DNA from: a virus
Taxonomy: Duplodnaviria > Heunggongvirae > Uroviricota > Caudoviricetes
IMG/VR virus record: IMGVR_UViG_3300028833_002727
Direction: 5' to 3' (one strand)
Length of the DNA stretch: 64,000 nucleotides
The first letter of the stretch is position 1. Each line of letters begins with the position of its first letter. Under the pieces are notes generated by a model, which saw only the letters and a list, made by a program, of their open reading frames with translations, did not search any database and was not told the DNA's origin. Shown piece after piece: positions 1,621 to 60,784 of this stretch. The translations under genes were made by a program, and so were the position numbers.

Positions 1621-2166
1621 GTAACTGGGATTATTAACGATTCTGTAGCAGGTAATAACTCTACGTATTCATCAAATAAAATTGATAATCTAATTAGCAT
1701 GATTGCTCAATTAAGTATCGAGGTTGTTGATGAATTACCTGCGAGTGGTAATACACACACCATCTATTTGGTTCCGGCACAAGAAAGTGGTGAAACAAAT
1801 TCAAGAGATGAGTATCTTTGGATTGTCGACGCTAGCACAGGAGTAGGTACTTGGGAACTAATTGGTACAACAAAAATTGATTTATCTAATTACTATACTG
1901 TAACTGAAGTTAATATGTTATTAGATGACAAACAAGACACTTTAACCGCTGGAGATAACATCGAAATCACTAGCGGGGGTACTAGCGGAATTACTATCAG
2001 TGCAACTGGAACTACAAGTGCTACTGAGCAGGCATTAGAAGATATGTCTTTTGTTATTTCAAGCCATATCAATGAATTAAACACTAAAGTTGATAGTAAA
2101 CAAGATGAAGTAAATGTAACTGTTGAAGAGGTGTTGGACGTATTAAATAGTTCTGACGATGAATAA
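1474..2166 (+). CDS. Virion fibre/appendage-like protein, paralogue of 1098..1445
   Basis: Two KQD.LTAGDNIEITSGGT modules, STYSSNKI, and VVDELP...IYLVP...DEYLW...WELIG...DLSNYYT fibre-type motifs. Confidence 0.65.
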   Translation: MEQFIQNMLIGIRQWVNEKIAGVNEAIDNKQDILTAGDNIEITSGGTISVTGIINDSVAGNNSTYSSNKIDNLISMIAQLSIEVVDELPASGNTHTIYLVPAQESGETNSRDEYLWIVDASTGVGTWELIGTTKIDLSNYYTVTEVNMLLDDKQDTLTAGDNIEITSGGTSGITISATGTTSATEQALEDMSFVISSHINELNTKVDSKQDEVNVTVEEVLDVLNSSDDE

Positions 2167-16277: not shown

Positions 16278-16286
16278 CCATTAGTT

Positions 16287-16781
16287 ATGACACCGTGTAC
16301 TGGAAATAAAGATGCGATGGTAAGAGCTGGAGCTAGACTTGGAAAAAATGTTTCAATTATTGGTGATGTACATTATTCTAGCGAGCCATATCTTATCAAA
16401 ATTGGAGATAATACAACAATATCATTTGAATGTGCATTTATAACACATGACGCAGCAACTCGCGTTATTCGTAATTTACCAGATGGAAATAAAGAAACGG
16501 TTATTTATGGAACGATAGAAGTTGGTAAAAATTGTTTCATTGGATGTAGGACAACAGTATTACCAAATGTAAAAATCGGTGATAATACTATCATTGGTGC
16601 ATGTAGTTTGGTATGCTCAGACATACCTTCTGGCGTTGTAGCGGCTGGAAATCCATGTAAAGTAATATGTACATTGGATGAGTACAGGGAAAAACATAAA
16701 GACGATTTTTTATATATGGTTTCATTACCACCAGATAAGAAGAAAACATATTTAATGAAACATTTTAAGATAAATGGATAA
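16287..16781 (+). CDS. Left-handed beta-helix (hexapeptide) sugar O-acetyltransferase
   Basis: EPYLIKIGDN...FITHD...IEVGKNCFIG...VLPNVKIGDNTIIGACSLV..DIP..VVAAGNPCKVI. Confidence 0.92.
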   Translation: MTPCTGNKDAMVRAGARLGKNVSIIGDVHYSSEPYLIKIGDNTTISFECAFITHDAATRVIRNLPDGNKETVIYGTIEVGKNCFIGCRTTVLPNVKIGDNTIIGACSLVCSDIPSGVVAAGNPCKVICTLDEYREKHKDDFLYMVSLPPDKKKTYLMKHFKING

Positions 16782-19530
16782 GAACAATTTTAACATACTA
16801 ATAGTACATTATAATACACCAAAGTTAACCGAGTGTTTAGTTAAAAGTATCAACAAATTTGTTGGTACCGATTGTACTATATACATATTTGATAATAGCG
16901 ACAAAAAACCATTCACATATAAACAAAGTAATTTAACGATTTTGGATAATACACATGGCGAAATAATCAATTTCGACAAATGGTTAGAAAAATATCCACA
17001 GCGTTTTCAGACAAAGGCTAAAATGAACAACTTTGGTAGTGCAAAACACGCATATACAATTGAAAAATGTTTTGATTTAATCCCGGGTAATTTTGTTTTA
17101 ATGGATTCTGATATTCTATTGAAACAAGACATATCAAAATTTGTTAATGACAACTATGTTTCTTGTGGTGAAATATTCAAAACAACAGTAGTAAAATCAC
17201 GTGTTTTACCATTCATTTGTTATATCAATGTTGAATTATGTAAAAAATACGGTATACACTTTTTCGACGAAAAAAGAATGAATGGTTTATATACTGGTAA
17301 ATATCCTGAGTCGTATGATACAGGTGCATCTTTCCTTGAAGATATAACAAATACAAAAGCACCATTTTTAAATATTAAATTAGATTCTTATATCGAACAT
17401 TTTAAGGCCGGAAGTTGGCTTAGTGAATCTAATGCATTACATAAAGCAAAAAGAACAGAGGAAGAATGGCTTGAGACAAACAAAAAATACTATTTCAATT
17501 CTGACATTGTTGTATCTCTTACAACGCATGGCGAACGTGTTAAATATATTCAACCAACACTAGAATCATTATTGAAACAGACAATTAAACCATACAAAAT
17601 TATAGTTGCATTGTCAGATGCTGATTATGCAAAAATTCCAAGTAATATCATTTCGTTTATGAACGAACATAAAATTGAAACAATTACTTGTGAAAAAGAT
17701 TTAGGCCCACATACAAAATACTATTTTGCAATGCAAAAATATAGGAACAATCCTATTGTAACTGTTGATGACGATATTGCGTATGATAATAATCTATTGG
17801 AATTATTATTAAAAGGTTACAATAAATTTCCAAACTGTGTAAGTGCAAATAGGGTTCACAAAATTAGATACAACACAGATGGCACGCCAATTGATTATAT
17901 GAAGTGGCAAATTCAATACAAAGATGAATATATGAAACCTTCATTTGATTTATTTGCTACTGGTGTTGGTGGTGTGTTATATCCGCCAAACATATTGGAT
18001 ATTGATGGCGTGCTCATAAAAGATATTGATAAAAGTTTCTTTGCTGATGATGTTTATTTGAAGTGGAGAGAAAACGAGTTGGGTGTACAAGTTGTTTATA
18101 CTGGTAATGGTAAATCATTAAACGGTAAAGAAGTTTCAAACGCAACCGTTAAATCGACTGGTTTAGCATTGGTGAACAATTTGAAAAACCGTAATGATGC
18201 TTATATTGAACAACTTGGTTTACGCAAGACAATTGTAAAAAATAAACGCGTTATCTATACATGTATTACCGGTAACTATGAAGCATTAGTACCTCTTACA
18301 AATCGTCAAAGTGATTTTGATTATGTATGTTTTACTGACAACAGTGGATTAACATCAGATTTCTGGGAGTTGCGCCCAGTTCCACAAGAACTATTAAAAT
18401 TGTCATGTGTTAAACAGCAAAGAATGATAAAAATTTGCCCGCATAGATATTTACCAGATTATGATGAATCAATATGGATTGATGGAGCAGTAGATGTGCT
18501 TTCTGATCCAAATAAATTCATTGAAAAATTCTGTTCTGATAGTAATAAATCAGTGTTTATTCGTAAGCACCCAAATAGAAACTGTATCTATACAGAGGGG
18601 CTGACATGTATAAAACTGAGAAAAGATAAAGCGGCAATTGTAAATCCACAGTTAGATAAATACAGAAAAGAGAATTTCCCTAGAAATTTTGGTTTGGCGG
18701 AAACTAATATTATATATAGGAAACACAAAAACCCATATTGTGTTAAACTAATGGATTTATGGGCTATTGAACTGTTGAATGGTTCACATAGGGATCAGTT
18801 ATCATTCAATTATGCATTATGGAAAGTCGGAAGTGATGGATTTAAATACTTATATATGCGTTTGACACATAACCCATATTTCAAATGGTATACATCGCAT
18901 AACAGAGGAAGGGTTGCCGCCGCTTCATCTAAAAAAAAAAAATTACAACAGTCGACAGTACCAAAATGCAACACTTCATTTGGGGTTAAAAAGGACGAAA
19001 ATAAGAAAACCGTCCAGGTAAAAAAACACGTTCCAGAACAGAAAAAAGTAAAAGTTTCAGCACAAAGACATACGATTGGGCCTAAAGAAATATCACAAAC
19101 TGTTGATAAACCGAAAAAAATCGAAATTAAAACTAAACCTGTTGTAAAAAAACAAGTGCAACATGAAAAGGCTATTGTATCAAAACCAGTTGTGCGTGCT
19201 AATCCAATTGTATTCAAAAAACCAACAGAATTGGTAATGAGTGGTTTGGGTAGTAAATATGTTCCATTAACAAAACCTATTGAAGCACCTAAACCAGTTG
19301 AGAAACCTAAGTCAGTTGCAATAAAAACAACACAGCCGCAAAACAAAAAGAACAAACCAGTTAATGTTATAGTGCCAAAGAATGAGAATGTGAATGAGAT
19401 TAAAAAAACACAGGTTATTTTAAAACAAGGTACGCGCGTGTTGTCAAGAAGAGTTGATAATATTTCTGGAAAGAAAATGGAAAGAGTTAATAAACGAAAT
19501 AGTAGCAGTAGAAGTGGTTTTTTCAGATAA
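16774..19530 (+). CDS. Three-domain glycosyltransferase (GT2-like + GT2-like + DUF616-like) with a Lys/Pro-rich tail
   Basis: IVHYNTP...LMDSD; IVVSLTTHGER...TVDDD...TGVGGVLYPP; VIYTCITGNYE...IWIDG...RDQLSFNY. Confidence 0.88.
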   Translation: MDKNNFNILIVHYNTPKLTECLVKSINKFVGTDCTIYIFDNSDKKPFTYKQSNLTILDNTHGEIINFDKWLEKYPQRFQTKAKMNNFGSAKHAYTIEKCFDLIPGNFVLMDSDILLKQDISKFVNDNYVSCGEIFKTTVVKSRVLPFICYINVELCKKYGIHFFDEKRMNGLYTGKYPESYDTGASFLEDITNTKAPFLNIKLDSYIEHFKAGSWLSESNALHKAKRTEEEWLETNKKYYFNSDIVVSLTTHGERVKYIQPTLESLLKQTIKPYKIIVALSDADYAKIPSNIISFMNEHKIETITCEKDLGPHTKYYFAMQKYRNNPIVTVDDDIAYDNNLLELLLKGYNKFPNCVSANRVHKIRYNTDGTPIDYMKWQIQYKDEYMKPSFDLFATGVGGVLYPPNILDIDGVLIKDIDKSFFADDVYLKWRENELGVQVVYTGNGKSLNGKEVSNATVKSTGLALVNNLKNRNDAYIEQLGLRKTIVKNKRVIYTCITGNYEALVPLTNRQSDFDYVCFTDNSGLTSDFWELRPVPQELLKLSCVKQQRMIKICPHRYLPDYDESIWIDGAVDVLSDPNKFIEKFCSDSNKSVFIRKHPNRNCIYTEGLTCIKLRKDKAAIVNPQLDKYRKENFPRNFGLAETNIIYRKHKNPYCVKLMDLWAIELLNGSHRDQLSFNYALWKVGSDGFKYLYMRLTHNPYFKWYTSHNRGRVAAASSKKKKLQQSTVPKCNTSFGVKKDENKKTVQVKKHVPEQKKVKVSAQRHTIGPKEISQTVDKPKKIEIKTKPVVKKQVQHEKAIVSKPVVRANPIVFKKPTELVMSGLGSKYVPLTKPIEAPKPVEKPKSVAIKTTQPQNKKNKPVNVIVPKNENVNEIKKTQVILKQGTRVLSRRVDNISGKKMERVNKRNSSSRSGFFR

Positions 19531-24791: not shown

Positions 24792-26672
24792 ATGCAATCA
24801 CAATTCTTATTAGAAAATCATTTAGGTGAAGCAGCGCTTCAACAACAAAAACAAGCTCGCGAACTTATTAGAGAACGTTGGAGTAACCTTGGTTTTACTA
24901 GAGGTTTAGAGGGTTATATGGAAGATAACATGGCAACTCTTTTCGAAAACGAGGCTCAAATGATGCTTTCAGAATCAACTGACGCACAAAACAGTGGTTC
25001 ATTCGAAACAGTTGTATTCCCATTAGTACGTCGTGTATTCTCACGTCTATTGGCTAACGACATCGTATCTGTTCAAGCAATGAACATGCCTATTGGTAAA
25101 TTGTTCTTCATCCTTCCTGTTACTAGCGAAAGACAATGGGATTTCGACGACATCGCACAAGCACTTTCTGCTTTGATGAGCGGACAAACTGTAGCAGGTA
25201 AACACGTTGGTTTGATGGGTTACCAAAGAACTAACCGTAACGAATGGGACGAAAACGGTGAAGGTACAAAACAAAACCGTTATTACTTACCAGACGAAGT
25301 AGTTAAACCTACTAGCAATGTTGAACCAAAAGTAACAGAGTACTTCAAGAAATCTCTTTACGATATGTTCTATAACGATGGTTTGTTCGACCAATCAAAA
25401 GGCCAAATCCATCTAAGAGCAGGTGAATTAGAGGAAATCGACAGAATCGAATTCGACGGTTCAGAAGTTGCACACGTAAGTGGCGCTCCACGTGCATTAG
25501 CATTCGATGGTACTGTTCGTAGTATCAAAGTTAAATTATCAGGTTTCAGCCCAGTAAACGCTGGTAGACTTATCGGTCCTGACGGTAACGAAATGGACAC
25601 TGAGGCTTTCTTGGCATCATTGAAAATTGTTACTAAAACTGAAATCGCAGCAGCTACAGGCGAAACAACAACAACTTCATTCAAGGAGTTAGAACCAGTT
25701 CACTTCCGCGTTGTAACACAACAATATGGCCGTGCAATGGTTCAATACGATAGCATCTGCAATGCTAAAGGCGAAATCTTACTTGAAATCGACTTAACAA
25801 AACCAACTGTACAAATGGGTAAAACTATTGACGGTTACATTGGTGTTGACGCAGACGCAATCGGTGATGTAAACGAAACATTCTTAGCAGTTTGGGCAGA
25901 ATACGACAGCCTTGAACTTGAAACTGAAATCGGTGAAGTTTCATTCAAACTTACAGACGTAACAGTTTCTGTTGAGGAAAGAAAACTTCGTGCAACCTGG
26001 TCACCAGAATTAGCACAAGACGTTGCTGCATTCCACAACATCGACGCTGAAGCAGAGTTAACTGCTATCCTTTCAGAGCAAATCGCTGCTGAAATCGACC
26101 GTGAAATCCTCCGTGACTTGCGTAAAGCATCTCCATGGACAATCAAATGGGATTACAATGGCTGGCGCCGTCAAGCAGGTTTCTCAACAAACTACACTCA
26201 GAAAGACTGGAACCAAACTCTTATGACTAAGATTAACCAACTTTCTGCTCAAATCCATAAAGCAACTTTACGTGGTGGTGCAAACTTCATCGTAGTTTCT
26301 ACTGAAATTTCAGCCGTTCTTAACGACTTAGAGTACTTCCATGTAACAGACGCTAACGCTGAAGCAGTTCAATATTCAATGGGTATTGAAAAAGTTGGTG
26401 CTCTTCAAGGACGTTATGAGGTATTCGTAGATCCATACAGTCCAGCACAATCATTGATTATGGGTCACAAGGGTGATAGTTTGTTAGACACTGGTTACAT
26501 CTACGCTCCATATGTACCAATGCAATTAACTCCAACTATCTATAATCCATTCAACTTCGCACCAGTAAAGGGTATCATCACTCGTTACGCTAAGAAGATG
26601 GTTAACAACAGATATTATGGTTCATTGGTAGTTAATGGACTTCAAACTTGGGACATCAACGAACTCCGTTAA
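24792..26672 (+). CDS. gp23: Major capsid protein (T4 gp23-like)
   Basis: PLVRRVF...DIVSVQAM..P.G; RKLRATWSPELAQD...H.IDAEAEL..ILSEQIAAEIDREI; GYIYAPYVP; GIITRYA; codon usage of a highly expressed gene. Confidence 0.98.
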   Translation: MQSQFLLENHLGEAALQQQKQARELIRERWSNLGFTRGLEGYMEDNMATLFENEAQMMLSESTDAQNSGSFETVVFPLVRRVFSRLLANDIVSVQAMNMPIGKLFFILPVTSERQWDFDDIAQALSALMSGQTVAGKHVGLMGYQRTNRNEWDENGEGTKQNRYYLPDEVVKPTSNVEPKVTEYFKKSLYDMFYNDGLFDQSKGQIHLRAGELEEIDRIEFDGSEVAHVSGAPRALAFDGTVRSIKVKLSGFSPVNAGRLIGPDGNEMDTEAFLASLKIVTKTEIAAATGETTTTSFKELEPVHFRVVTQQYGRAMVQYDSICNAKGEILLEIDLTKPTVQMGKTIDGYIGVDADAIGDVNETFLAVWAEYDSLELETEIGEVSFKLTDVTVSVEERKLRATWSPELAQDVAAFHNIDAEAELTAILSEQIAAEIDREILRDLRKASPWTIKWDYNGWRRQAGFSTNYTQKDWNQTLMTKINQLSAQIHKATLRGGANFIVVSTEISAVLNDLEYFHVTDANAEAVQYSMGIEKVGALQGRYEVFVDPYSPAQSLIMGHKGDSLLDTGYIYAPYVPMQLTPTIYNPFNFAPVKGIITRYAKKMVNNRYYGSLVVNGLQTWDINELR

Positions 26673-40592: not shown

Positions 40593-40716
40593 ACCAATAA
40601 ATACTTTTAGAAAAAACAAAAAATACACAAGTTCCAGAATAATTTACAAAAATTTTATTTAGGTATATAAATGAAAAATAACAGGTATTTATTGTTAAGA
40701 AATAGTGTATATAATT

Positions 40717-42180
40717 ATGATAACAAGAACGTTTTTAGATAAAACAACAACAATTAAAAGAGGTACGTTAGATAACTTTGGTTTACATCCAATTTCATTT
40801 ATTGGATATGGCTCTGGCATCTATCGTTCTTTAATTCATTTTGATGTTGAGAATATCAAAAGATTGATTGAAGATAAAACATATGCTGACATTAGTAAAG
40901 TTACACACCATTTGATAATGAAAAATTGTGGATCAGTTGATACGCATGGTTTCTTTACAAAGGATGCGGCTCCAGAAATGCCAGGTATTAAAGAACGCGC
41001 TACATCATTTGATGTTATTTTGTTTAAAGTTAATAAACATTGGGATGAAGGTGTTGGTTTCGATAATATCAACGATTTTTGGGATACTGGTAAAGGCGTT
41101 GTATCAACTGACGGTGCAACATGGTATAACGCAACAACCGATACACAATGGGATGATGAAGGTATCTACCCATTAGATTTCATTGAATATGAATATGAAA
41201 AATACTTATGGTTAAAAGAACATCCAGATTATAGTGGTTCTACTTCAGGTGATACGAGTGGTATTACTGAAACTATAATTGTTGGAGCACAACATTTCGA
41301 CCATGGCAACGAGAATTTAGATGTTGATATTACTGATTATGTAAATAGTTTGATTTACGGTGAAGAAAACTATGGTTTATGTTTGGCATTTATTCCAGAC
41401 TTGGAAGCAACAAACAGGAAAATGACAGAATACGTTGGGTTCTTTAATAATAAGACAAATACCGTATTTGAACCTGTCGTTGAAACACGCTACAATTGTA
41501 AGATTTCAGATGATAGAATGACTTTCTATTTGGGAAAAAACAATAAACTATATTTGTATTCTTATATTGGTGGAAAACTTGAGAATTTAGACAACATACC
41601 TGAATGTGTTGTTGATGATTATACTTTACCTGTCGAACAAGAGAGTAAAGGTATATATGCTGCATATATTAACTTATCATCAAAAGATTACAAGAAAGAT
41701 ATGATTGTATATGATACGTGGAGTAAACTATCTTATAATGGAGAAGAACTAGATGATGTGGAACTTGAATTTGTTACGAAGCCAAAAGAAAATTTCTTCT
41801 CAGTATCAAGCGAAGTTTCAAAACCAAGAATATTGAATCCATTGATTTCTGGTATCAACGCAAATGAACAGTTAAATCGTGGCGAACAACGTGTAATAAA
41901 ATTGTATTTCAGAGAACCATACACTGGTAAGGATTACAATTTGGTTGATAATTGTCAATATCGTATCTACGTAAAAGATGGTGAGAGAGAAGTTACTATT
42001 GTTGATTGGGATGAAATTAACAAAATGAACACATGTAATTTGTTTACAATTAAAACAGATGAATTTGTGCCAGCAGATTATCATGTTGATGTACGCGCAC
42101 AATTTGGTGGCAGCATCAAGATATATAAAGATGAATTAAATTTCACTATCGTAAGTGATGTAAAGGAGATAAAATTATGA
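40717..42180 (+). CDS. Virion structural protein (DNRLRE/beta-sandwich-like)
   Basis: YRSLIHFD...WDEG.G...ATWYNA....W...G...QHFDHGNENLDVDIT..VN; tandem SGSTSGDTSGIT; TATTTAT at 40686. Confidence 0.65.
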   Translation: MITRTFLDKTTTIKRGTLDNFGLHPISFIGYGSGIYRSLIHFDVENIKRLIEDKTYADISKVTHHLIMKNCGSVDTHGFFTKDAAPEMPGIKERATSFDVILFKVNKHWDEGVGFDNINDFWDTGKGVVSTDGATWYNATTDTQWDDEGIYPLDFIEYEYEKYLWLKEHPDYSGSTSGDTSGITETIIVGAQHFDHGNENLDVDITDYVNSLIYGEENYGLCLAFIPDLEATNRKMTEYVGFFNNKTNTVFEPVVETRYNCKISDDRMTFYLGKNNKLYLYSYIGGKLENLDNIPECVVDDYTLPVEQESKGIYAAYINLSSKDYKKDMIVYDTWSKLSYNGEELDDVELEFVTKPKENFFSVSSEVSKPRILNPLISGINANEQLNRGEQRVIKLYFREPYTGKDYNLVDNCQYRIYVKDGEREVTIVDWDEINKMNTCNLFTIKTDEFVPADYHVDVRAQFGGSIKIYKDELNFTIVSDVKEIKL

Positions 42181-43046
42181 GAAAAATTATATTAACAGAA
42201 GGGCAATTAAAATATATTCTCAATAGCGGTTCAAAAACTCCTTTAAATGAACACGTAAATGAGATTTATAATGTTAATGCTGGTATTAAATTGATTGATG
42301 CACAGTGGGAAAGTCCAGATGATTTCTGGTATATCTATATCACTCAAAGAAAAAAGGATAATAGAGACACTTTTGTGAAGAACCATAACGCTAGCGGTAG
42401 TAAAACTTTTGGGGATAATTATATTGCATATGGTATAGTTCAAGGTAATACGAAAGAAGAAGCCATTGAATGTTTGAAAAACATTAAAATGAACATCAAC
42501 AGAGAATATTACAATAAAATTTCAAACAAAGGGAACACCGTAACATCTGTTGAGTCTACATCATTCCCAATTCAAGCAATTGTAATGTTATGTAATAGAT
42601 TTAACGCAAGATGCTACATGGCAGTAAACAAACGTTCTATGTCAGAAACTACAGGTTATGCTGATTCATTGAAACGTAGAGGTATGGAAAGAGGAAGAGA
42701 ATTCCAATTCGCTGCTGGTAGAAAAATGGTAAATAACGACCCAACAAGTGACTGGAAGAAGAAACGTCCATATGGTTTAATTGATTGCGACATAGACGAC
42801 CCACAAGCACAAAAAGAATTAGAAACTTTATTAGCACAAAACAATATACCTATTTTCGATAAATATCCATCACATGATGGTATGCACTACGTTCTAAATA
42901 GTAGAGATGCTGAACGTCTTGATTTTACGAGATTTGACACAGTATATAGGAAAGGAAATGCGGCACCAGGGCGAAGAAATAGCGACCCAATGGTACTATT
43001 CAAAGGTGACGCTTGTATTCTACTATATTCGGCTTGCGGATATTAA
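42177..43046 (+). CDS. Leader-bearing protein with AEP/prim-pol-like catalytic motifs
   Basis: MRKIILTEGQLKYIL...LNE; LIDCD and SHDGMHYV resemble AEP motifs I and II. Confidence 0.55.
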   Translation: MRKIILTEGQLKYILNSGSKTPLNEHVNEIYNVNAGIKLIDAQWESPDDFWYIYITQRKKDNRDTFVKNHNASGSKTFGDNYIAYGIVQGNTKEEAIECLKNIKMNINREYYNKISNKGNTVTSVESTSFPIQAIVMLCNRFNARCYMAVNKRSMSETTGYADSLKRRGMERGREFQFAAGRKMVNNDPTSDWKKKRPYGLIDCDIDDPQAQKELETLLAQNNIPIFDKYPSHDGMHYVLNSRDAERLDFTRFDTVYRKGNAAPGRRNSDPMVLFKGDACILLYSACGY

Positions 43047-48101: not shown

Positions 48102-48899
48102 TTATTCATTGTCTTCTGTGAAACTTTCTTCTGGTAATGGGTACTTATCAATAACATCTTGAATAAGTTGTCTACCTTCTTCTATCGGCAACTCTCTTGC
48201 CATTGTTGATAAGTATGAACTTTCTCTTAAAACAGTGTGTTTGTACCCAATACGTGGAGCGACAAATATCTTCTTACCTGATGTTACAGTATTTAATAGA
48301 TACTCATACCAAGCAGCAATTTTATATTCTGGTTTTAAACCACCTAATTCTTTAAAATCGGCTGTTCTAATATAACCGCCACTTGTTAAGAAATCTTTGA
48401 AAATAAACAAATCGTGATGTTCCACAAAACCAATTGTTCCTTTGTCGATAAATGCAACATCCCAAACGAGTTCGTTTGCTAAACCAGCAATTTCATCTTT
48501 TGGTGTTACAATTTCTGCCATTGGTAAAATAATACTGTAATCTTTGTCTGTATATCGTTGTGCTACTTCATTCCAATATGGATAGAAAGCATCATCTAAC
48601 TCAAGAATACAGAAATATGGCGTTTTACATTTAGAAACCGCAAGATTGATTTTTGCAAACAAATCTTTTTCATCGGTTGGAACTAATGTTACAATCTGTG
48701 TATTTTCATCACCAGCAACTTGATTGAATAGTTCATGTGCTTTTGTAATAATTTCAAGTTCACCAACTAAAAATAGTTCAGCCTTTTCAGCGCCTTTCAA
48801 TTGCGTGAAACTTGTAAATGCTTTTTCCAAAAAGCCTTTAACTTCGTCATCAAATACGTGGACTGGTACAATATATGTTACTTTCTTCATATTATTCAT
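48102..48899 (-). CDS. GT-A fold (GT2-like) glycosyltransferase
   Basis: VTYIVPVH...INLAVSKCKTPYFCILELDD...F.ELGGLK...YEYLL. Confidence 0.75.
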   Translation of the reverse strand: MNNMKKVTYIVPVHVFDDEVKGFLEKAFTSFTQLKGAEKAELFLVGELEIITKAHELFNQVAGDENTQIVTLVPTDEKDLFAKINLAVSKCKTPYFCILELDDAFYPYWNEVAQRYTDKDYSIILPMAEIVTPKDEIAGLANELVWDVAFIDKGTIGFVEHHDLFIFKDFLTSGGYIRTADFKELGGLKPEYKIAAWYEYLLNTVTSGKKIFVAPRIGYKHTVLRESSYLSTMARELPIEEGRQLIQDVIDKYPLPEESFTEDNE

Positions 48900-50004
48900 C
48901 TTCTGCTTTATCTAAATTATTTTTGAATGTTTGCTTAGCAATTGTTAATTCGTTTACACGTCCAGGAATAATTCCCTTTTCAAATGTTTCAAGAATGTCT
49001 GTATTTTGTCTTTCTTGTGTATATACAGCAAGTGTTTTTTCCATCTCTTCGTAAATTTCTTGAGGAACGGACTCGTGTAGTACAGCATTTAATACGTTTG
49101 CTAAAATGTCTGGTAATTCCCTCATATTGTAGAACCAAACACCATTGTTGCGTAGTTTACCTTGTTCATCTACCATCCATGCTGGAATATTTTCAGGAAT
49201 TTTACCAATTACGATGTTCTTACATGCCATTGCTTCCAATGCTGAATACCCAAAATCTGTATCAGGATCAATCCAAACTGTTACTTCTCCCTTTGCTACA
49301 TATTTAGCATATTCTTCTTTCGGCCTACCGTTAATATATCTAAATGATACAAAACCATATTCTGGGTGACGCCATTTGAATGGTTTGGTAACGCTATTGA
49401 TACATTTCGCGTCTTTACTTAAAATGTTTACAATCAATTCCTTTGGCTCATCAGTGTTCGCCTTTTCAAATAATTCATCAATAACAGGATGAATAACATA
49501 AACCTTTACATGTGGGAAAACCTCAAGTAAACGTTCCTTCAACTCTTCAGACGTTGTGATACAGTCGTGAACTCTTAATGTTTCCCAAGATGAACCCAAT
49601 GGTATTAACTCTGTTAGATAATCAAAGTTTTCAAGAATTGCAACTTTCTTACAATGCAACTCTTTTGTTTTTGACATTACGGAACTAAATAGTTCTGGAA
49701 TAAACAATATATCACTTGGTGATACATCAATAATATCGCTTGCGGCATTATAGTGTGGTAGTGCTGCATATTTTTCACCCAACCAACTACCAACACCAAC
49801 GAAATCTTTTTCTGAATACAACATTTGCACATTGTATCCCATCTCTTTTAATTGGTATGCCAATGGATAAATGTATGATAGTGAACCAATCGGCGCACCT
49901 TTAGAATCAGCCACAAAGAAGAATAGTTTATTGTTCTTGTCTGCTAATTGTTTAATTGATACTTCTAAATCCTTAATTACTTTCTTAATTTCAGTTTTGT
50001 TCAT
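48892..50004 (-). CDS. GT-B fold (GT4-like) glycosyltransferase
   Basis: DILFIPE; VWID..TDFGYSALEAMAC..IVIG. Confidence 0.8.
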   Translation of the reverse strand: MNKTEIKKVIKDLEVSIKQLADKNNKLFFFVADSKGAPIGSLSYIYPLAYQLKEMGYNVQMLYSEKDFVGVGSWLGEKYAALPHYNAASDIIDVSPSDILFIPELFSSVMSKTKELHCKKVAILENFDYLTELIPLGSSWETLRVHDCITTSEELKERLLEVFPHVKVYVIHPVIDELFEKANTDEPKELIVNILSKDAKCINSVTKPFKWRHPEYGFVSFRYINGRPKEEYAKYVAKGEVTVWIDPDTDFGYSALEAMACKNIVIGKIPENIPAWMVDEQGKLRNNGVWFYNMRELPDILANVLNAVLHESVPQEIYEEMEKTLAVYTQERQNTDILETFEKGIIPGRVNELTIAKQTFKNNLDKAEDE

Positions 50005-50016
50005 ATTTTTGTCTAT

Positions 50017-50412
50017 TTATTCTTCTGTTGTTATTTTCTTAATAAAACCATATTCCATAAATGTTTGTAACGCCATAAGAGATTGTAAACTAATCAATGG
50101 TTTGTCATTATCGTTTGCTACTGGCTTTTCTGTTAAAATAGTCGTAAGCAACATTTTTACTAAATCCAATTTAAAATCATCATACAAAGGTGTTTCTTGT
50201 GGCGTTATAACCTCATGTACTATCTTCTCAGCCAACACCATTTCCTGTTCTTCATTTAATTGGTAACTGTTGCTAATCTCTTGTTGCCTAAACTCGTTTT
50301 CTTTTTTGGTTGGATTGTTTTTCGGCTGATTACTTTTAATTTGACAATATGCTGTTATTGCATCCAAATCAAGTGAATATTCCATAAATTGCAATTTTTC
50401 CATATTAGTCAT
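50017..50412 (-). CDS. Hypothetical protein
   Basis: Clean ORF inside the GT operon. Confidence 0.75.
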   Translation of the reverse strand: MTNMEKLQFMEYSLDLDAITAYCQIKSNQPKNNPTKKENEFRQQEISNSYQLNEEQEMVLAEKIVHEVITPQETPLYDDFKLDLVKMLLTTILTEKPVANDNDKPLISLQSLMALQTFMEYGFIKKITTEE

Positions 50413-51007
50413 ATTTTTTATCTAATGTTAAGATTATTTCTTTGTCAAGTAAAAATTCAGATAGACTACTATACGAATAATCTGCTTCACAGTCTTTATT
50501 GTAATCGTTTTCGATTCTGATTGATGTTTTGCCTTCTGGTTTATTATTCAATAAATTTGGATCAGCAGTAATTAGAACATCACATCTATCCCAAATTTCA
50601 GAAGAGTCTGCTGGGAAGAAAATGTTTCTAATTCTAGTAGCCATTTTTGATAAGAAGAAACATGTGCAACCAATTGAAGCATTAAATTCCTTCGGATTAC
50701 TCAATGAGACTTCTAATTTACGCTTTAACTCATCATTGTTTTCTTGTTCTAATAGCCATAAATTTAACCTCTTATCAAGTGTTTTTTCGCACGCAGTTGC
50801 TTCCCCAAAAACTTCAAACACATAATCTTCATATAAAAATTTATTAAATTCCTTTTTACTTTTGAATTCAAAAATATCCTCATAATTGTTTGTTGAAAAG
50901 TCCAGTGTCTCTAAATCAATACTCGGTTTAATGTATTTCTTGTAAATTTTACCCAACTGGACTGTCTTATTTCTTAATACATCATCAAGCGTTAAGCAAA
51001 GTCTCAT
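50405..51007 (-). CDS. HAD-fold 5'(3')-deoxyribonucleotidase-like protein, possibly inactive
   Basis: MRLCLTLDDVLRN (DxD position reads TxD), CDVLITADP, NDYN; likely start ATG 51007. Confidence 0.6.
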   Translation of the reverse strand: MRLCLTLDDVLRNKTVQLGKIYKKYIKPSIDLETLDFSTNNYEDIFEFKSKKEFNKFLYEDYVFEVFGEATACEKTLDKRLNLWLLEQENNDELKRKLEVSLSNPKEFNASIGCTCFFLSKMATRIRNIFFPADSSEIWDRCDVLITADPNLLNNKPEGKTSIRIENDYNKDCEADYSYSSLSEFLLDKEIILTLDKKYD

Positions 51008-52289
51008 ATTTTTTATCAATTTGTTTTTGTATTATTATCTCTTTGTAAAATTTCTCACGTTGTTTTGTAACAGTTGCTAAATCATATTTTTCATGGAAAT
51101 CTCTGTACAGATTATCTTGTAACATTTTCACATACTCAGGATGTTTTACAAGTTTTTCAATTGCCTTAACCCAGTCTTTTGGCGAACGTCTATTATCAAT
51201 CAAAATTGCATTACCATCTGGGTCGATTTCGCCACCCTTTTTGAAAAAATTCTTTAATCCAATTGTATACGGTCCAAAATTGCTTCCAATAAACGCTGTA
51301 TGTGAGAAACAACATTCAACTGGTTTTAATTCACTCTTTACAAGGTTAAACTCATTTTCTTTCAAAGGGGCTAACAAAACGTCAATTTCTCTATAGTGTT
51401 GATAATAATTGTTCATATCCTTTGTCCAACATCTTTTATAACCCTCTTGTTCTGCATTTGGATATACACTATTTGGTACGAATTGTTCAAGGAATTGTTT
51501 GTATTGTGGTGAGACAATTTTGTAATTGTCAGTAACCATTTTCTCGTATCTATACCATACACCTTCCTGTGGAGTCATTGGACGTATTTGCTTTGTGCCA
51601 TCTGGAGCATAATATGTCATAGTGCCTCTATTATCGAATCCACACAAGACAATTTCAATTTTATCTAATATATCTTTTGGAAGTGCTCCAACAAATCCAC
51701 CCATTGTTTGTAAATCAGGTTCATGTGTTGAACCCATAATAAAACCAATTCTAAGTTTACTGCATTGTGGCTTCTCAACCACAAATCGTTTATCCGTAGG
51801 GTCTATTGCATTTGGAAAAACAATAACGTTTTTATTAAATGGACGTATCATTTTAGCAAAAAACTCGGTGGTTGTTGTAACATAATCAACAAGTTTTAAA
51901 TTGGTTTTGATAGCATCTTCCTGATTAAATTCGTCACCTGTTTTTCTTGAAAACAATTGCATTTTATATTGTGGGTGTTCACTACCAAGTTTCCAGTGGT
52001 CGTCAATATCCATAATTGTAACAATTCCATTTTCTTTGAAAAAATTCAAGGCTCTAACAAAGTTTGCTTGTTTCTCGTTTGTGTCAAAAAATAAACCCCT
52101 GTGAAAATGTATAATTTGAAATTGTTTAAATGCTTCGAGATTACTAAAATCAGGTTTAGACATTGATGCAATTTCAAATTCATCAGGATACATAGATAAC
52201 AACTTTTGATGTGGTTGTACACTTCTATAAAAACCAATACCGCCAATTGTGTCGGTATAAATTATCAATACACGTATTTTATCGCTCAT
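50985..52289 (-). CDS. GT-B fold glycosyltransferase
   Basis: GIGFYRSVQPH, MDIDDHW, VTTTT, PNAID, IGFIMGSTH..DL, DVLLAPL..NEFN..KSELK.VE. Confidence 0.88.
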   Translation of the reverse strand: MSDKIRVLIIYTDTIGGIGFYRSVQPHQKLLSMYPDEFEIASMSKPDFSNLEAFKQFQIIHFHRGLFFDTNEKQANFVRALNFFKENGIVTIMDIDDHWKLGSEHPQYKMQLFSRKTGDEFNQEDAIKTNLKLVDYVTTTTEFFAKMIRPFNKNVIVFPNAIDPTDKRFVVEKPQCSKLRIGFIMGSTHEPDLQTMGGFVGALPKDILDKIEIVLCGFDNRGTMTYYAPDGTKQIRPMTPQEGVWYRYEKMVTDNYKIVSPQYKQFLEQFVPNSVYPNAEQEGYKRCWTKDMNNYYQHYREIDVLLAPLKENEFNLVKSELKPVECCFSHTAFIGSNFGPYTIGLKNFFKKGGEIDPDGNAILIDNRRSPKDWVKAIEKLVKHPEYVKMLQDNLYRDFHEKYDLATVTKQREKFYKEIIIQKQIDKKYETLLNA

Positions 52290-55192: not shown

Positions 55193-56782
55193 ATGGCGAT
55201 ACTTAACAAATATAAAAAAAAATGGAAAACATTACTGTTACTACGAAAAGATAGGTATGATGATTTTGTGCTATCGCTAGATAACACAAAGGCAGTACCG
55301 CTTGACGGTAAACTAACAGAAAATTGTTTGATTAGTTATATTGACACCAATAATCCGAATTGTATTATTGATAATTCTTTATTGTTTTCAGATTCAAAAT
55401 ACAGTTATGAAAACGCAATAAATAATAATGTGTCATTAAGTAACATTGGTTTTACAGGTATTGACACTTCAATTGTTCCGTTTGATAAAGACAATGTTGA
55501 TATGGATGAGTTTATTGACATTGTTCAAATGAGTACTTTAGATATTACAAGTGGTGATACAAGATTACAATTGTTACCTGTGTCTGGAAACACAAAATTG
55601 TATGATTATCCTTGCGAAATAGTTTCAGAAAGTGGCGACACATATTATAAATTAAATGGTGGATTTTTACAAGGATTCTACAAAACATGTGATGGTAAAT
55701 ATGAAGTATTACCTCAATACATAAACAACACTTGGAATTTAGAGTTTGTTATTCGCCCAAGAAGTGACTATCAAGAAAGTGGTGAGACGAGCGCAAATAC
55801 TTTGAATACGATGTACCCTGATAATAGCGGAATATTCTTCTATATGGGTACAAGAGCGGAGAATAAATTTGTTGAATATTTCGGTTGCAAAGACATTGAC
55901 AAATATCCACTTCGAGAAGTTTCTGGTGAGACATCAAGTAAAACATGGGAAAATATACCATTGTTAGTGACATCTGAAGGACATATAGCAGAGTCTGGTA
56001 TAGAATACGATATAGCAACTGACAATGGTTATTTAATTTATGACAGAACATGTGAAGGATATACAACTGATACGTGGACTCGTGGAAATACTTTACGTTT
56101 AACACTTAAACACCGTGATATTGAGGATAATCTATATACGCTGTTGAACAGAACTTGTACTGGTTTTACAACAGATACATTAGCAAAATATCTAGAAGAA
56201 CATCCAGAAAAATACACTAAAAATAAATGTAATATTATTGGTGATTTAATTGGTAATGCATTTGCTTTGAAAGTTAATAGAGATGACTCTATTGGTTACA
56301 AATATCTAATTAGAGATTGTAACAATGAGGATAAATTTTCAATCGCGGAAGAAAACGGTTTCCCTGGATTGATTAAAGACGGTGAATGGAATGTCATCAA
56401 TGTTATGTTTAAAATTTTAAACGGTGAAGTTGACAAATGTGGTGTTCCATTGGGTGAACGAAGAATGAAAATATACATCTATGTAAATGGTTACTTGAAA
56501 TTTGTTTCAAAAGAATTACCTGAGTTTAATTTCAGAGAGTTGAACAATTTCTGTGATGAACAGGAAGGTGTAGCATTTAATTTGTCACTTGGAGGTGGAA
56601 CACAAGGTTTAATGGAAAGCGTTTGGTTTAATAAAATGACTGGTTCAAAACATATTTTCCCTTTGGAAAGCAATTTTGCTGGAAGTTTTATTGGTGATAT
56701 ACGCTCATTCAAGTTCTATAATTGTCAACTACAGTACAATCAAATCAAAAATAATTACATATACGAAATAAATAAAAACTAA
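55193..56782 (+). CDS. Virion structural protein with a LamG/concanavalin-like C-terminus (likely start ATG 55193)
   Basis: IYIYVNGYL...LSLGGG...NFAGSFIGDIRSFKFY...L...QIKNNY; five SGxT motifs; TATTTAT at 55161. Confidence 0.7.
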   Translation: MAILNKYKKKWKTLLLLRKDRYDDFVLSLDNTKAVPLDGKLTENCLISYIDTNNPNCIIDNSLLFSDSKYSYENAINNNVSLSNIGFTGIDTSIVPFDKDNVDMDEFIDIVQMSTLDITSGDTRLQLLPVSGNTKLYDYPCEIVSESGDTYYKLNGGFLQGFYKTCDGKYEVLPQYINNTWNLEFVIRPRSDYQESGETSANTLNTMYPDNSGIFFYMGTRAENKFVEYFGCKDIDKYPLREVSGETSSKTWENIPLLVTSEGHIAESGIEYDIATDNGYLIYDRTCEGYTTDTWTRGNTLRLTLKHRDIEDNLYTLLNRTCTGFTTDTLAKYLEEHPEKYTKNKCNIIGDLIGNAFALKVNRDDSIGYKYLIRDCNNEDKFSIAEENGFPGLIKDGEWNVINVMFKILNGEVDKCGVPLGERRMKIYIYVNGYLKFVSKELPEFNFRELNNFCDEQEGVAFNLSLGGGTQGLMESVWFNKMTGSKHIFPLESNFAGSFIGDIRSFKFYNCQLQYNQIKNNYIYEINKN

Positions 56783-56784
56783 TT

Positions 56785-57261
56785 ATGGCACAGACAAAAA
56801 GATATAGAGATGGGGACAGATTACATGCTGGTGTTTTTAACGCATTACTAAACACAGTTGAAAAACTTGAATATGACGTTGATGAACTAAAAAAGAAAAA
56901 AGACAACAACACATGGCGCTCTATTAAGGTGAACAATAAAGAGATTTTAGGTAATGGAACAAATACAAACCCGTTAAATTTATTACCTGGAGATGGAGTG
57001 ACTATTTCACATGATAATAATGGTAATGTTACTATTGCTAGCACTGGTGGCGGAGGAGGTGGTACTTCATATATTGCAGGTGACAACATTAAAATTAATG
57101 GTAATGTTATTAGTGCTATAGATACCAAATATATATCTTCTGATTTTGATATTAAAGATTTAGCGGATTCAGAAGGTTTACGTGAAGAATGGAGCAGTAA
57201 ACAAGATCCTATTTCTGTTGATGTAGAGGATGTTATTGATGTCTTAAACGATGAAGATTAA
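56785..57261 (+). CDS. Fibre-like protein sharing modules with 1098 and 1474
   Basis: YIAGDNIKINGNVISA, SDFDIKDLADSEGLREEWSSKQD, VDVEDVIDVLNDED. Confidence 0.7.
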   Translation: MAQTKRYRDGDRLHAGVFNALLNTVEKLEYDVDELKKKKDNNTWRSIKVNNKEILGNGTNTNPLNLLPGDGVTISHDNNGNVTIASTGGGGGGTSYIAGDNIKINGNVISAIDTKYISSDFDIKDLADSEGLREEWSSKQDPISVDVEDVIDVLNDED

Positions 57262-57263
57262 CT

Positions 57264-57304
57264 AAAAAAATAGCAAGCTATGCAACGCTTGCTATTTCTT
57301 TTTC
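57264..57304 (+). terminator. Hairpin terminator overlapping the polymerase stop
   Basis: aaatagcaagc-tatgcaac-gcttgctatttctttt. Confidence 0.75.
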
Positions 57305-60300
57305 TGTTTCAACTTCAGCAGCCTCATTTAACTGTTTCTCTTTTTCTTCGAGTAAATCAACCAAGTTCGCTAAAGTTGCAAGTACAACGTCAGGATATTC
57401 TTTACAAACGAAATCACCGTTTACTGGGTTAATATCTGCAATCTTTGTTAGTGATTCTGGTATTTCACCTTCTTCTAACAAATCATCAATTTCACCTATA
57501 GACAATTTGTTCAATTCTTTTTCGAATTTCTCACGCGTAGCATCAACGCCAAGACGTTTTTCCTCAGCCTTACGATGAATGTAATCTTGTTGAATACCTT
57601 CCCAAGTGCCCATTCCACATTCTTCAATAAATGGTGGTACTAATCCATATTCCATCCAGAATTTTATTTCCTTGTCTTCCATTGTCATAAGTTGTTCATA
57701 TGTATCCTGGTCGCTTGTCTTATAAGGTTGTCCAGAACTCATCTGACACTCTTCTTCCGTAAAATATTGTCTATTTTCCGGATTTGTAACAACTATTCTA
57801 TCACGAATAGACTTATCGAAACATACAAGTAATGGTTTAATACGTTTATTGAACATATCTATGTATTTTGCAACATTGTATTCAATTCCATTGTCATCAT
57901 CACACAAGACATCACTTTCACTTTCAACAATTTCTCTTGGTACAAGAATACAATTCATTATAACCTCTTCTGTCGTGTAGTAACCAGGATATTCCGTGGC
58001 AATCCATTTTTGTTTGTCAAGAACTGGAGCACCGATTTTCATACCGCATTCTTTCTTGTATTTTTTGTAGCCACTATCTATTTTGTTGGAGAATTCAATT
58101 TCATTTCCATCAAAATCTTTATAGTAGTAATGTGTTACTTTTTTGACATCAGAATGTGACTTACTCTTACCAGTATTTACATAGTATATGGTATCACCAT
58201 TATCAACATGCAAATCGTTGGCAATAGCTAATTCATACCATGCCTGTCTTGATTTTGGGCGCCCAGCCTTGGTTACCTGTTTTATATCTTCTAAGTATTC
58301 CTTAACACTTTTCTTAATTTTTCCCTTTGTTGCAATGTCACGAATAGGAATTTGGTAATTATAAATCTTCGCCAAATATTCGTAGTAGAACTCAATGAAT
58401 TGAGCACCTTCACCACGTAGCAACTGTCTAATTGCTGTATCAAGGAAAATCTCGATATATTGAGGCATCTTCTTCGATTTGATGGTATTGCCTACAAGTT
58501 TTACATCTTCAGGATATGTCTTGTCTGGGAAATAGTCCGCATAGTTCTTACGGGAGAAGTTAATAGTTGAACTAACAACGTCATCAATACCTAAACCCAT
58601 TTTGTTTACTGCACTTGGCGAGTAGTGGAAATCTTTCATGTACATATCGTTGAACTCAGCAACATCAGCAGCAAATCCTGTATATGCTTTACCTTCTTTT
58701 ACCTCACGGTTTAACCCTTTACCGATGTAAGGGTTCTCTTCGGTATATCTATACGTTTTAGGTATTTGGAAGTTGAAACCATCAGTATCACCTACAATTG
58801 GTTCATATCCCAAATCATGGAAATGACTAATCATTAAACGTAGGCATTGACGCCCAGTACAAGTTGTTTGTTCAGCACATTTTTTGGATTTCCACGGGAA
58901 TACAGCGCCATTGTTAGAACCATAACTACCGAAGAACGAGTTACCAAGTTTTTTAACAACCGCTTGGTTATTATCATTAACTTTGAAATCATTTTTAGCA
59001 GCCTCATATTCAGCCAATTGTTCTTTGAGTAATTGAATACCATGAGTTAATTGTTTCTCATACTCATCAACAATATTTTCTGCCGCTTTCTTGAGTTTCT
59101 TGTATTTCTCACGGTTAGTCAATACGTATTCAAGCATATGTAACATTGCTTGCATCAAGTCAGTATCATCAGAAATACCCCAAGTTAAAATAATAGACGG
59201 ATAAAGTGAGTTGTAGTCCAATTTTACTACATCTCTAACATAGCCTACTCGCAAAAGACGTGATAAACCACCTGTAAAAGCACCTGTATTTGCTGCTAAT
59301 GGGATTGCTAAGTCGTTTTCATAACTCCACGCCAACATAATAGCCTTCCATTGTCCAGCCGTACCCATTGTTGTACACTTTGAGAATGGTTCAGGAATAA
59401 TTTTTGCTAACATGAAGTCAGTACCATTGTAACTATATTCAACTCTGTCACATTCCCAAATATCATCCAAAAGGTAGCGGTTAATGATATATTCACCTGT
59501 TACAACTTCATAACCATCTGCAAGATAGTTACGCTTGTACATAACAAATGGTTTATCACTAACTTTACCTTTCTTAAATTCAGTCTCTTTACTATCTGGT
59601 AATGTTTCATCATACAAATACCAGTCACCATCCGTATCATTGAAAGCATATTTATTGACGGTATCCGTCAATATTTTATCAATATCTTGTCCTGGAGTAT
59701 ACACACGGTTATCTTTCTTGATACCGAGGAAGCCACTAATATACTTCAAATCAGCACGTTTAATAGAACTGTTGGTTGCTTGTGCCCTACGTACAGCGTG
59801 CATTGAATCAGTTACCGTTGTATCTGGAACAATGGTACGATAGAATTTCTCTACCTCACCACCAAGTTTCAATGTGCTCTCGCGTGTTTCCTTATGTATA
59901 AACTCATCATGGAAATATTTTTTGGACATTTCCTCGATACTTGTACCTAACATTTCACAACGAACAATAATAAAGTTCCAGTCGAAGTTTTCACCGTTAT
60001 GTGCGGTGATGATGTCAGGTTTGAATGTGTATATAAGTTTCAAGAATAAATCAATAACTTCCAATTCCGATTTATTCTTTTCTTCTTCTGTATTACCACT
60101 GATTTTGAAAATTCTACCCCAATTCTTATATGTTTTACCATTGATGGTAACAGGACGATTTAAACGGACACCGTTAAGTTTCAAACGATGTCTTTTCGGG
60201 TCGAGTCCTTCCGTTTCCAAGTCGAATGCCATACGTAACAACTGGTCGTAGTCCGTATAACCCTTGAAAAAACGTTTACCTGTTGAAATTAGAAATTGTT

Positions 60301-60784
60301 CTTGGGGTGTTACTGTTAAGTATTGACGGTTTTTATCTCTATTCACAAGAGATTTATCGTCATCTTTCTTATCTGAATATACTGGGTTTCCTGCCCATTT
60401 GAAGAAACGAAGAAAGTCACTATACGACATCCTATTTTTGGCATAGAACAAAAACAAATATCCATCGTCAAACTCATGGCGAACCTCACCAAGACTATTT
60501 GTGTTATTTAAACGTTTAACACCTATTTGGAATTTATTGAGAAGTTTTTTTACCTCATTTCTATTACCACCACATAGTTTGTTACATGCCTCGTATGTAG
60601 CCCAAAGGAACGGGAAAAATGGTTCGTCTTTTACACATTTTCTATCCTGCTCATCTCTGTAGAATACGCTGATGAAATCATTTTTATAAGAATAGGATAG
60701 ATTTACTATTCGTTCTTGAGGGTCTCTACCCTCCATAAATTTAGCAATGTCCTCTTGCGAGATTTTAAGTTTTCTTTCTTCCAT
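57278..60784 (-). CDS. polB: Family B DNA polymerase with 3'-5' exonuclease
   Basis: FDLETEG (ExoI), HNGENFD (ExoII), YLLDD (ExoIII), LDYNSLYPSI, KKLGNSFFG, GDTDG. Confidence 0.97.
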   Translation of the reverse strand: MEERKLKISQEDIAKFMEGRDPQERIVNLSYSYKNDFISVFYRDEQDRKCVKDEPFFPFLWATYEACNKLCGGNRNEVKKLLNKFQIGVKRLNNTNSLGEVRHEFDDGYLFLFYAKNRMSYSDFLRFFKWAGNPVYSDKKDDDKSLVNRDKNRQYLTVTPQEQFLISTGKRFFKGYTDYDQLLRMAFDLETEGLDPKRHRLKLNGVRLNRPVTINGKTYKNWGRIFKISGNTEEEKNKSELEVIDLFLKLIYTFKPDIITAHNGENFDWNFIIVRCEMLGTSIEEMSKKYFHDEFIHKETRESTLKLGGEVEKFYRTIVPDTTVTDSMHAVRRAQATNSSIKRADLKYISGFLGIKKDNRVYTPGQDIDKILTDTVNKYAFNDTDGDWYLYDETLPDSKETEFKKGKVSDKPFVMYKRNYLADGYEVVTGEYIINRYLLDDIWECDRVEYSYNGTDFMLAKIIPEPFSKCTTMGTAGQWKAIMLAWSYENDLAIPLAANTGAFTGGLSRLLRVGYVRDVVKLDYNSLYPSIILTWGISDDTDLMQAMLHMLEYVLTNREKYKKLKKAAENIVDEYEKQLTHGIQLLKEQLAEYEAAKNDFKVNDNNQAVVKKLGNSFFGSYGSNNGAVFPWKSKKCAEQTTCTGRQCLRLMISHFHDLGYEPIVGDTDGFNFQIPKTYRYTEENPYIGKGLNREVKEGKAYTGFAADVAEFNDMYMKDFHYSPSAVNKMGLGIDDVVSSTINFSRKNYADYFPDKTYPEDVKLVGNTIKSKKMPQYIEIFLDTAIRQLLRGEGAQFIEFYYEYLAKIYNYQIPIRDIATKGKIKKSVKEYLEDIKQVTKAGRPKSRQAWYELAIANDLHVDNGDTIYYVNTGKSKSHSDVKKVTHYYYKDFDGNEIEFSNKIDSGYKKYKKECGMKIGAPVLDKQKWIATEYPGYYTTEEVIMNCILVPREIVESESDVLCDDDNGIEYNVAKYIDMFNKRIKPLLVCFDKSIRDRIVVTNPENRQYFTEEECQMSSGQPYKTSDQDTYEQLMTMEDKEIKFWMEYGLVPPFIEECGMGTWEGIQQDYIHRKAEEKRLGVDATREKFEKELNKLSIGEIDDLLEEGEIPESLTKIADINPVNGDFVCKEYPDVVLATLANLVDLLEEKEKQLNEAAEVETEKEIASVA

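Follow-up and report, generated by a model that had tools for sequence, protein, structure and literature searches.

In this paper we looked at a 64,000 nucleotide (nt) stretch of DNA from an uncultured Caudoviricetes virus (IMG/VR record IMGVR_UViG_3300028833_002727), called here the window, and at the tetrapeptide Ser-Gly-x-Thr (SGxT, with any residue at x; [ST]GxT when Thr is also accepted at the first position) that recurs in the proteins of this phage. We found that the real feature is a set of short [Ser/Thr]-Gly-x-Thr arrays, which lie in exposed flexible loops of the outer tail sheath, of a protein with carbohydrate-binding module (CBM)-like and immunoglobulin (Ig)-like domains, and of a concanavalin A (ConA)-like lectin-fold protein. 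Based on the sequences, we tentatively suggest that these arrays are O-glycosylation acceptors for the soluble glycosyltransferases (GTs) of the phage, which would act on the tail surface and on the two lectin-like proteins and not on the whole virion. The coordinates of all features are given in Table 1.

An Excess of SGxT that Depends on Residue Order

The window corresponds to positions 40101–104100 of a 118,756-bp contig. It holds 22 SGxT motifs and the contig holds 30, against 7.2 expected. The highest count in 2000 per-protein shuffles was 18, and among 8000 motifs of the form ABxC the SGxT motif ranks first by over-representation (z 8.5); the enrichment that a preliminary description of this DNA had expected is thus confirmed. 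The shuffles and the motif ranking rule out chance as the source of the excess. Local composition rich in Ser, Gly and Thr is also ruled out, because other orders of these residues are not enriched: most are near expectation, the exceptions (TS.G, G.TS and TSG) are in phase with the SGxT period, and the reverse control T.G[ST] is depleted (9 vs. 15.3 expected). All the SGxT counts in the preliminary description were correct, including the triplet at 41233–41268, five in 55193–56782 and five in 1474–2166, and to these can be added four SGLT in 2198–3820 and one site in the GT at 16774–19530. Of the 30 sites, 10 have an acidic residue (Asp or Glu) at x.

The glucosyltransferases of phage T4 act on DNA only. 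T4 virion proteins are not enriched (SGxT 9 vs. 6.8; [ST]GxT 18 vs. 14.4, a 1.25–1.3-fold ratio equal to that of the reverse control) and contain no tandem [ST]GxT array, so that the enrichment is not a trait common to T4-type virion proteins. The family of the large GT served as an enzyme control; its 120 listed homologues gave 15 [ST]GxT against 21 expected, and the annotated enzymes of the window show no SGxT excess.

The whole excess is found within six proteins, and the other 121 open reading frames (ORFs) have 8 motifs against 5.8 expected. It has several sources: the LRR_5 consensus, a fibre repeat unit, conserved GxT turns and the loop arrays. All four SGLT of the BspA-type leucine-rich repeat (LRR) protein are at a fixed place in the repeat, in the context AF-x-x-C-SGLT-SV-x-IP, and their sequence indicates a repeat consensus (C-SGLT-SVTIP) and not independent motif gains. 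In BspA-type LRR proteins (PF13306) SGLT is part of a C-SGLT-S segment whose copies are homologous and structural, whereas the arrays are loop insertions; the SGLT copies are therefore to be removed from sequon counts. In the fibre-like protein at 1474–2166, two of the SGxT are inside copies of the repeat unit DKQDxLTAGxNIEITSGGTIS, and there is a tandem pair, SGGTSGIT, from nt 1972 onwards. Its paralogue at 1098–1445 also has SGGT in the unit, and a third paralogue (56785–57261) has NGNV in its place. Altogether about 7 of the 30 matches are repeat-unit copies (4 SGLT and 3 SGGT), and are therefore the result of homology and not of convergence. Single SGxT are found in 1098, in 44487, in the major capsid protein (MCP) as well as in the 1168-residue polymerase. 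Without the LRR protein and the two fibre-like paralogues (1098 and 1474), 20 SGxT are left against 6.4 expected, and the remaining carriers are the CBM/Ig-like protein (3 sites), the ConA-like protein (5) and the sheath (4).

These several sources raise the question of whether there is a common cause at all. Unrelated repeat consensus sequences, conserved turns and low-complexity loops might simply share Ser, Gly and Thr, as the repeat-unit copies do, and nothing is left of the excess without the six rich proteins; in distant relatives, too, the LRR_5 and fibre proteins hold most of the SGxT. We regard this as improbable because the signal is order-specific and because tandem arrays with a common register recur in independent loops, proteins and clades. 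At the DNA level, a pattern for two tandem units has 4 matches in the contig (control 0) and 28 in 35 relatives (8.9 Mb; control 3), 22 of these relatives having none.

Location of the Arrays in Three Proteins

The protein at 40717–42180 has 403 homologues and is a core gene product of its jumbo-phage group; Pfam and PHROG searches with it gave no match. In its AlphaFold2 (AF2) model, the N-terminal domain resembles the chondroitin-sulfate CBM 8wab_B (VIA-align; Z 18.1, root-mean-square deviation 3.4, 167 residues aligned) and the alginate CBM 7vbo_A (VIA-align; Z 14.7). Based on this model, the domain (40717–41500) may serve to bind acidic polysaccharide. A Foldseek search of the PDB with the model of the 40705 ORF gave generic Ig-like matches only. 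The fold of 40717–41500 is also near that of an accessory subunit of Bacteroidota β-barrel assembly machinery (BAM) complexes.

The array SGST-SGDT-SGIT falls in a loop of the AF2 model (179–186, pLDDT below 50) between a helix and a strand. Its Ser codons are AGT, TCA and AGT and its Thr codons ACT, ACG and ACT. Among 40 aligned homologues this insertion is limited to relatives with at least 78% identity, which have one to four units, and the variants in close relatives include SGSTSGDTSGIT, SGSTTGSTSGDTSGDT, SGSTSANTSGDT, TGNTSGDT and TGTT. At this position a simple x-G-x turn is present in more distant relatives. By the alignment the array is a lineage-specific loop insertion, and the earlier impression of an inserted loop was right, as the triplet is disordered in the model and missing in relatives below about 78% identity.

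The ConA-like protein (55193–56782) has fold matches to 5hon_B (Z 15.7) and to chain 9vyh_q of the cyanopodophage Pan3 tailspike (Z 15.6). In the predicted model, sites 4 and 5 are in loops with pLDDT below 50 and sites 1–3 are at β turns, with site 3 at a hairpin tip and site 2 being a conserved G-N-T turn. Invariant in the family are G174-N175-T176, G331-x-T333 and G366-x-T368, and 120 homologues have 534 [ST]GxT against 44 expected. Close relatives carry zero to five tandem units at three loops, for example SGETSGDTSGQTTGETSGDT, TGNTSGET and SGDTSGETTGAT, and distant relatives have a Cys-rich insert at these loops instead of arrays. In two close relatives the orthologue has 7–10 motifs, with almost none in about 35 neighbouring proteins, as seen in a relative with 77% identity.

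The tail sheath, encoded just beyond the window, matches phrog_23 (2e-51) across residues 9–1064. It has the conserved N- and C-terminal core of T4 gp18-type sheaths, interrupted by a variable middle insert (about 330 residues), which by analogy with T4 gp18 we take to be the outward-facing part. The arrays SGETSGET and SGVT..SGYT are in this insert, outside the conserved core alignment. The sheath has 7141 homologues, with lengths up to 1832 residues. In 150 representatives, [ST]GxT is found 457 times against 145 expected (reverse control 126), and tandem [ST]GxT occurs nine times at varied positions, with 0–1 for each of the five other cyclic orders and 0 for the reversed one. The orthologues of three distant relatives have arrays elsewhere in the protein, for example TGSTTGTT and TGTTSGIT.

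Array Turnover and the Spacer Explanation

Of the 12 nt in an array unit, 4–6 differ from one unit to another, and the Ser codon family changes as well; at the first position switches between AGY and TCN occur and Thr (ACN) is tolerated. Such differences rule out a DNA repeat as the explanation. Only the sheath pair is near-identical in DNA, and it is therefore probably the product of recent slippage. The preliminary claim of protein-level convergence without a DNA repeat thus holds for the array at 41233–41268, where the codons differ, and does not hold for the repeat-unit copies described above. Among relatives the copy number varies from zero to five at four loops. Since the units, the sheath pair excepted, differ at several DNA positions, the arrays expand by duplication of 12 nt, followed by drift that spares Ser/Thr, Gly and Thr, and they also become shorter by steps of 12 nt. 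Only x and the synonymous sites drift, and therefore the hydroxyl-Gly-x-Thr pattern itself is subject to selection. In distant clades arrays are found at other positions of the sheath orthologues, in 55193-family orthologues and in tail-fibre proteins, and sequence comparison indicates that they were gained independently at different positions.

One explanation, which is nearly as likely as glycan acceptors, is that the arrays are loops with a structural or spacer role, which carry no modification, result from 12-nt slippage in insertion-tolerant hairpins and are read by no enzyme. They would be retained because Ser/Thr-Gly-x-Thr makes a good unit for a solvent-exposed turn or for the extension of a hairpin, with Gly in the turn and the β-branched Thr in the strand. 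This fits several single sites that are conserved turns in the 55193 family, the site 3 hairpin tip, which is longer by four-residue steps in relatives, and the recent slippage in the sheath pair. It also fits the plainly structural SGxT of the LRR_5 and fibre repeats, the overall 3.2-fold enrichment of the sheath family, and the arrays of relatives that have few GT2 domains (G020 and G024, for example). Yet, a mere linker should drift out of register, whereas Ser/Thr, Gly and Thr are kept here while x and the codons vary. Moreover, AF2 predicts no ordered element for the arrays, one cyclic order is found in at least seven independent loops of unrelated folds and distant clades, and T4 structural proteins have no such preference.

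Another hypothesis is that the arrays are read by something other than a GT, such as a Ser/Thr kinase, a different modifying enzyme or a docking partner in the virion, or that they form a variable epitope that diverts host or immune recognition. Conservation at the protein level, exposure and variation in copy number would fit any reader, and decayed units (SVET, SSET, SSKT and SANT) retain Ser and Thr more often than Gly. We consider it quite unlikely, as no kinase or other candidate turned up among the searched proteins, where GTs are the sole abundant modifying enzymes seen.

Glycosyltransferases of the Phage

The phage encodes about seven to nine soluble GT domains, at least six of them supported by Pfam. 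The earlier estimate of about ten was roughly right in number; most of the domains are at 12924–19530, and 48102–52289, which had been proposed as the source of the enzymes, has only one GT at the PHROG level. The main cluster consists of two GT polyproteins with an acyltransferase between them, and the first one (1117 residues) includes a GT7 domain (Glyco_transf_7C, 5.8e-8). Hydropathy analysis showed no transmembrane segment in the GT proteins. The GT and acyltransferase genes are separated by gaps of at most 56 nt and only 34 nt lie between the end of 16774–19530 and the prohead protease gene. The same plus-strand string continues into the protease, scaffold-region and MCP genes, and the GT genes of 12924–19530 are thus in an operon-like string with head genes.

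The 1117-residue GT has mosaic homologues only, which match about a quarter of its length with no more than 56% identity; among the matches listed, these come from many huge phages, one of them Wendovervirus sonii (Grandevirales, 660 kb). In these mosaics GT92, GT2 and GT7 are combined with DUF5672, Stealth, pyruvyl-transferase, ATP-grasp and DUF4422 domains. That its relatives are domain mosaics suggests rapid domain shuffling. The gene for the 434-residue GT-B-like protein is a core gene, found in 22 of the 35 relatives and in 11 of the 13 complete ones, with 42–56% identity (33% in one case). It lies inside a block of conserved ORFs of unassigned function together with 40717–42180 and 55193–56782, and in many relatives a GT2-type ORF of about 270 residues is within a few kb of it. 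A scan of some 45 proteins, from a sequence that covers about one third of the genome, found no GT14-type xylosyltransferase.

The Arrays as Possible Glycan Acceptors

If the arrays are glycan acceptors, the array loops would serve as tags for cytoplasmic Ser/Thr O-glycosylation during late assembly. The enzymes might be the two GT polyproteins and the acyltransferase of the head operon, the GT-B/GT-A genes of 48102–52289, or both. In this way the tail surface and the two lectin-like proteins would become glycosylated, with no coat over the whole virion.

The link between the motif and the GTs is circumstantial, judging from the genomes compared, and several observations weigh against it. The co-occurrence rests on one or two clades: among the 35 relatives the number of arrays correlates with the number of GT2 domains (rho 0.38, p 0.025), and this correlation falls to about zero once one clade is left out. 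In that one well-supported clade the GT2 cluster adjoins the array-rich 55193 orthologue. The 434-residue GT-like gene is present with or without arrays, the 1117-residue GT has no close full-length homologue, and among the matches listed none is tied to the close relatives. The closest IMG/VR relative (G001, a 91-kb fragment, 25% complete) has GT pieces and no arrays. The residue at x differs by clade, being acidic or polar here and hydrophobic or Thr in an aquatic clade, and therefore the arrays may not be one thing. The MCP, which has one SGQT only, at residue 130, and the portal are not enriched in SGxT. The literature usually assigns the GT clusters of jumbo phages to the modification of host polysaccharide or DNA (PMC7824862; PMC12619734).

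The preliminary description, in which SGxT is the acceptor for the phage GTs, is thus partly supported. Its statement that the motif is concentrated in structural proteins holds for outward-facing and binding-type proteins, and enzymes have no arrays, but the MCP, the portal and most ORFs are not enriched, and the proposed virion glycan coat goes too far. The co-occurrence of motif and GTs, which it proposed to test, is seen in the overall correlation and is lost without the one clade, and the 434-residue gene is found with and without arrays.

A wider form of the acceptor hypothesis, which we consider unlikely, is that [Ser/Thr]-Gly-x-Thr is the acceptor of an undescribed cytoplasmic O-glycosylation system shared by several jumbo and T4-like phage groups. 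Initiation of the glycan would fall to the conserved GT-B/GT-A pair of the structural module, and the fast-shuffling multi-domain GT polyproteins would build strain-specific chains onto it. In that case the sheath and the lectin-like proteins would bear a variable brush, O-antigen-like or proteoglycan-like, with a density set by the copy number of the arrays.

Comparison to Known Glycosylation Systems

A literature search for "SGXT" together with glycosylation found nothing relevant. To our knowledge, virion self-glycosylation is established for a few mycobacteriophages only, and we know of no acceptor motif for any phage. According to the accounts of Freeman 2023 given in PMC12363180 and PMC12619734, the virions of mycobacteriophages Che8, Corndog and Myrna are glycosylated by phage GTs. 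As in these phages, the GT genes here are near or within structural genes, and exposed Ser/Thr segments are the proposed acceptors; both 12924–19530 (flanking gaps of at most 56 nt) and 50985–52289 are beside structural or late genes. In the mycobacteriophages, as far as these accounts go, the glycans are at the C-termini of capsid and tail-tube proteins and were shown by mass spectrometry, whereas our candidates, known from sequence alone, are arrays internal to the sheath and to two accessory proteins. Unlike in the mycobacteriophages, the MCP is not enriched and the GTs are multi-domain polyproteins. Virions of XacN1, a jumbo myovirus with two GTs, were found to contain glycoproteins (PMC5852040).

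In chlorovirus PBCV-1 the capsid is glycosylated by cytosolic multi-domain viral GTs (PMC4691112; PMC5852040). The system proposed here would be similar in its soluble multi-domain GT-A enzymes and in a virion glycan made without a host secretory pathway. PBCV-1 infects eukaryotes and its glycans are N-linked, at atypical Asn residues, whereas O-linkage to a tetrapeptide array in a bacteriophage is proposed here.

Eukaryotic glycosaminoglycan (GAG) attachment uses Ser-Gly with acidic neighbours. The arrays are similar to this signal in their Ser-Gly core and in the acidic x of one third of the sites; Glu also precedes Ser at three sites of the 55193 protein, and the GT7 domain of the 1117-residue GT is of the β4-galactosyltransferase type. 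They differ from it in the Thr at +3, which is not part of the GAG signal, and in the lack of a GT14 among the proteins scanned, and the resemblance may be coincidental. The O-glycosylation of Bacteroidota is periplasmic, and tailed-phage virions assemble in the cytoplasm. Its sequon, D-(S/T)-(A/I/L/V/M/T), was rejected as an explanation: in the three SGDT the Asp is followed by Thr and then by Ser, Arg or Tyr, and Ser is preceded by Thr, Glu, Val or Tyr. The preliminary description had rightly told the two apart, since the flanks do not fit.

If the arrays are acceptors, they would be a marker, readable from sequence, by which uncultured gut jumbo phages could be searched for glycosylated virion proteins, and the large GT polyproteins of huge phages, which shuffle rapidly, would gain a role. 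They would also point to a tail glycan layer that is tunable and that might influence adherence to mucus, immune recognition or host defence. Without any modification, they would remain a clear example of a convergent, selected short peptide pattern in exposed loops.

Genomic Context

A GT protein identical to that of the window is found on a 317,841-bp contig and the relatives of our contig are 200–410 kb in size; the 118,756-bp contig is therefore taken as a fragment of a jumbo phage. Its GC content is 33.5%. Homologues of the two lectin-like proteins start at the ATGs at 55193 and 40717, and the mechanical ORF starts (TTG at 55067 and GTG at 40705) are probably wrong; by this comparison the true start of the gene with the array at 41233–41268 is probably the ATG at 40717. 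A TATTTAT box lies 5′ of 30 genes, 40705, the sheath gene and 11402 among them. We do not take it as evidence for late expression because it also precedes the polymerase gene and has 109 copies in 119 kb.

Table 1. Features of the window and the adjacent sheath gene. Positions refer to the window unless stated otherwise.
Feature	Position	Strand	Details
Fibre-like paralogue of 1474, repeat unit including SGGT	1098–1445	+	78% identity across first 51 residues
Fibre-like protein (230 residues), five SGxT	1474–2166	+	phrog_24103
BspA-type LRR_5 protein, four SGLT	2198–3820	+	Pfam LRR_5 (PF13306) 7.9e-91
GT polyprotein (1117 residues): GT92/GT2_4, GT7, GT2 and a fourth GT2-like region	12924–16277	+	Pfam; internal similarity to 16774
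Hexapeptide-repeat acyltransferase between the two GT polyproteins	16287–16781	+	Pfam Hexapep 6e-13
GT polyprotein: GT2-like N-terminus, GT2, TOD1/MUCI70 GT-like	16774–19530	+	Pfam
Prohead protease	19565		
gp23-type MCP	24792–26672		
Large terminase	27204	−	
Portal	34054		
CBM-like jelly roll, then Ig-like β-sandwich domains	40717–42180	+	AF2 pLDDT 84.7
Tandem array SGST-SGDT-SGIT, three [ST]GxT units	41233–41268	+	Residues 177–188 of ORF 40705–42180
Two sub-threshold GT ORFs	48102–50004	−	265 residues (GT2, E 0.015); 370 residues (GT4, E 0.19)
GT-B-like protein (434 residues)	50985–52289	−	phrog_7162 glycosyltransferase 1.2e-32; no Pfam match
ConA-like lectin-fold protein with insertions	55193–56782	+	Five SGxT (nt 55550, 55583, 55631, 55778, 55922) and TGFT
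Tail sheath (1065 residues)	L001:7110–10307 (contig 111210–114407)		Just beyond the window

Two further observations concern relatives with 77% identity. At the syntenic locus of one (L100) the 289-residue ORF 42177–43046 is missing, and the orthologue of 43077 directly follows that of 40705. The family-B DNA polymerase, which is uninterrupted in the window (57278–60784), is divided in a relative with 77% identity (L101:11594–18088) into two ORFs of 393 and 869 residues that flank a 611-residue DUF723 protein, and from its position within the polymerase this protein looks like a mobile insertion.

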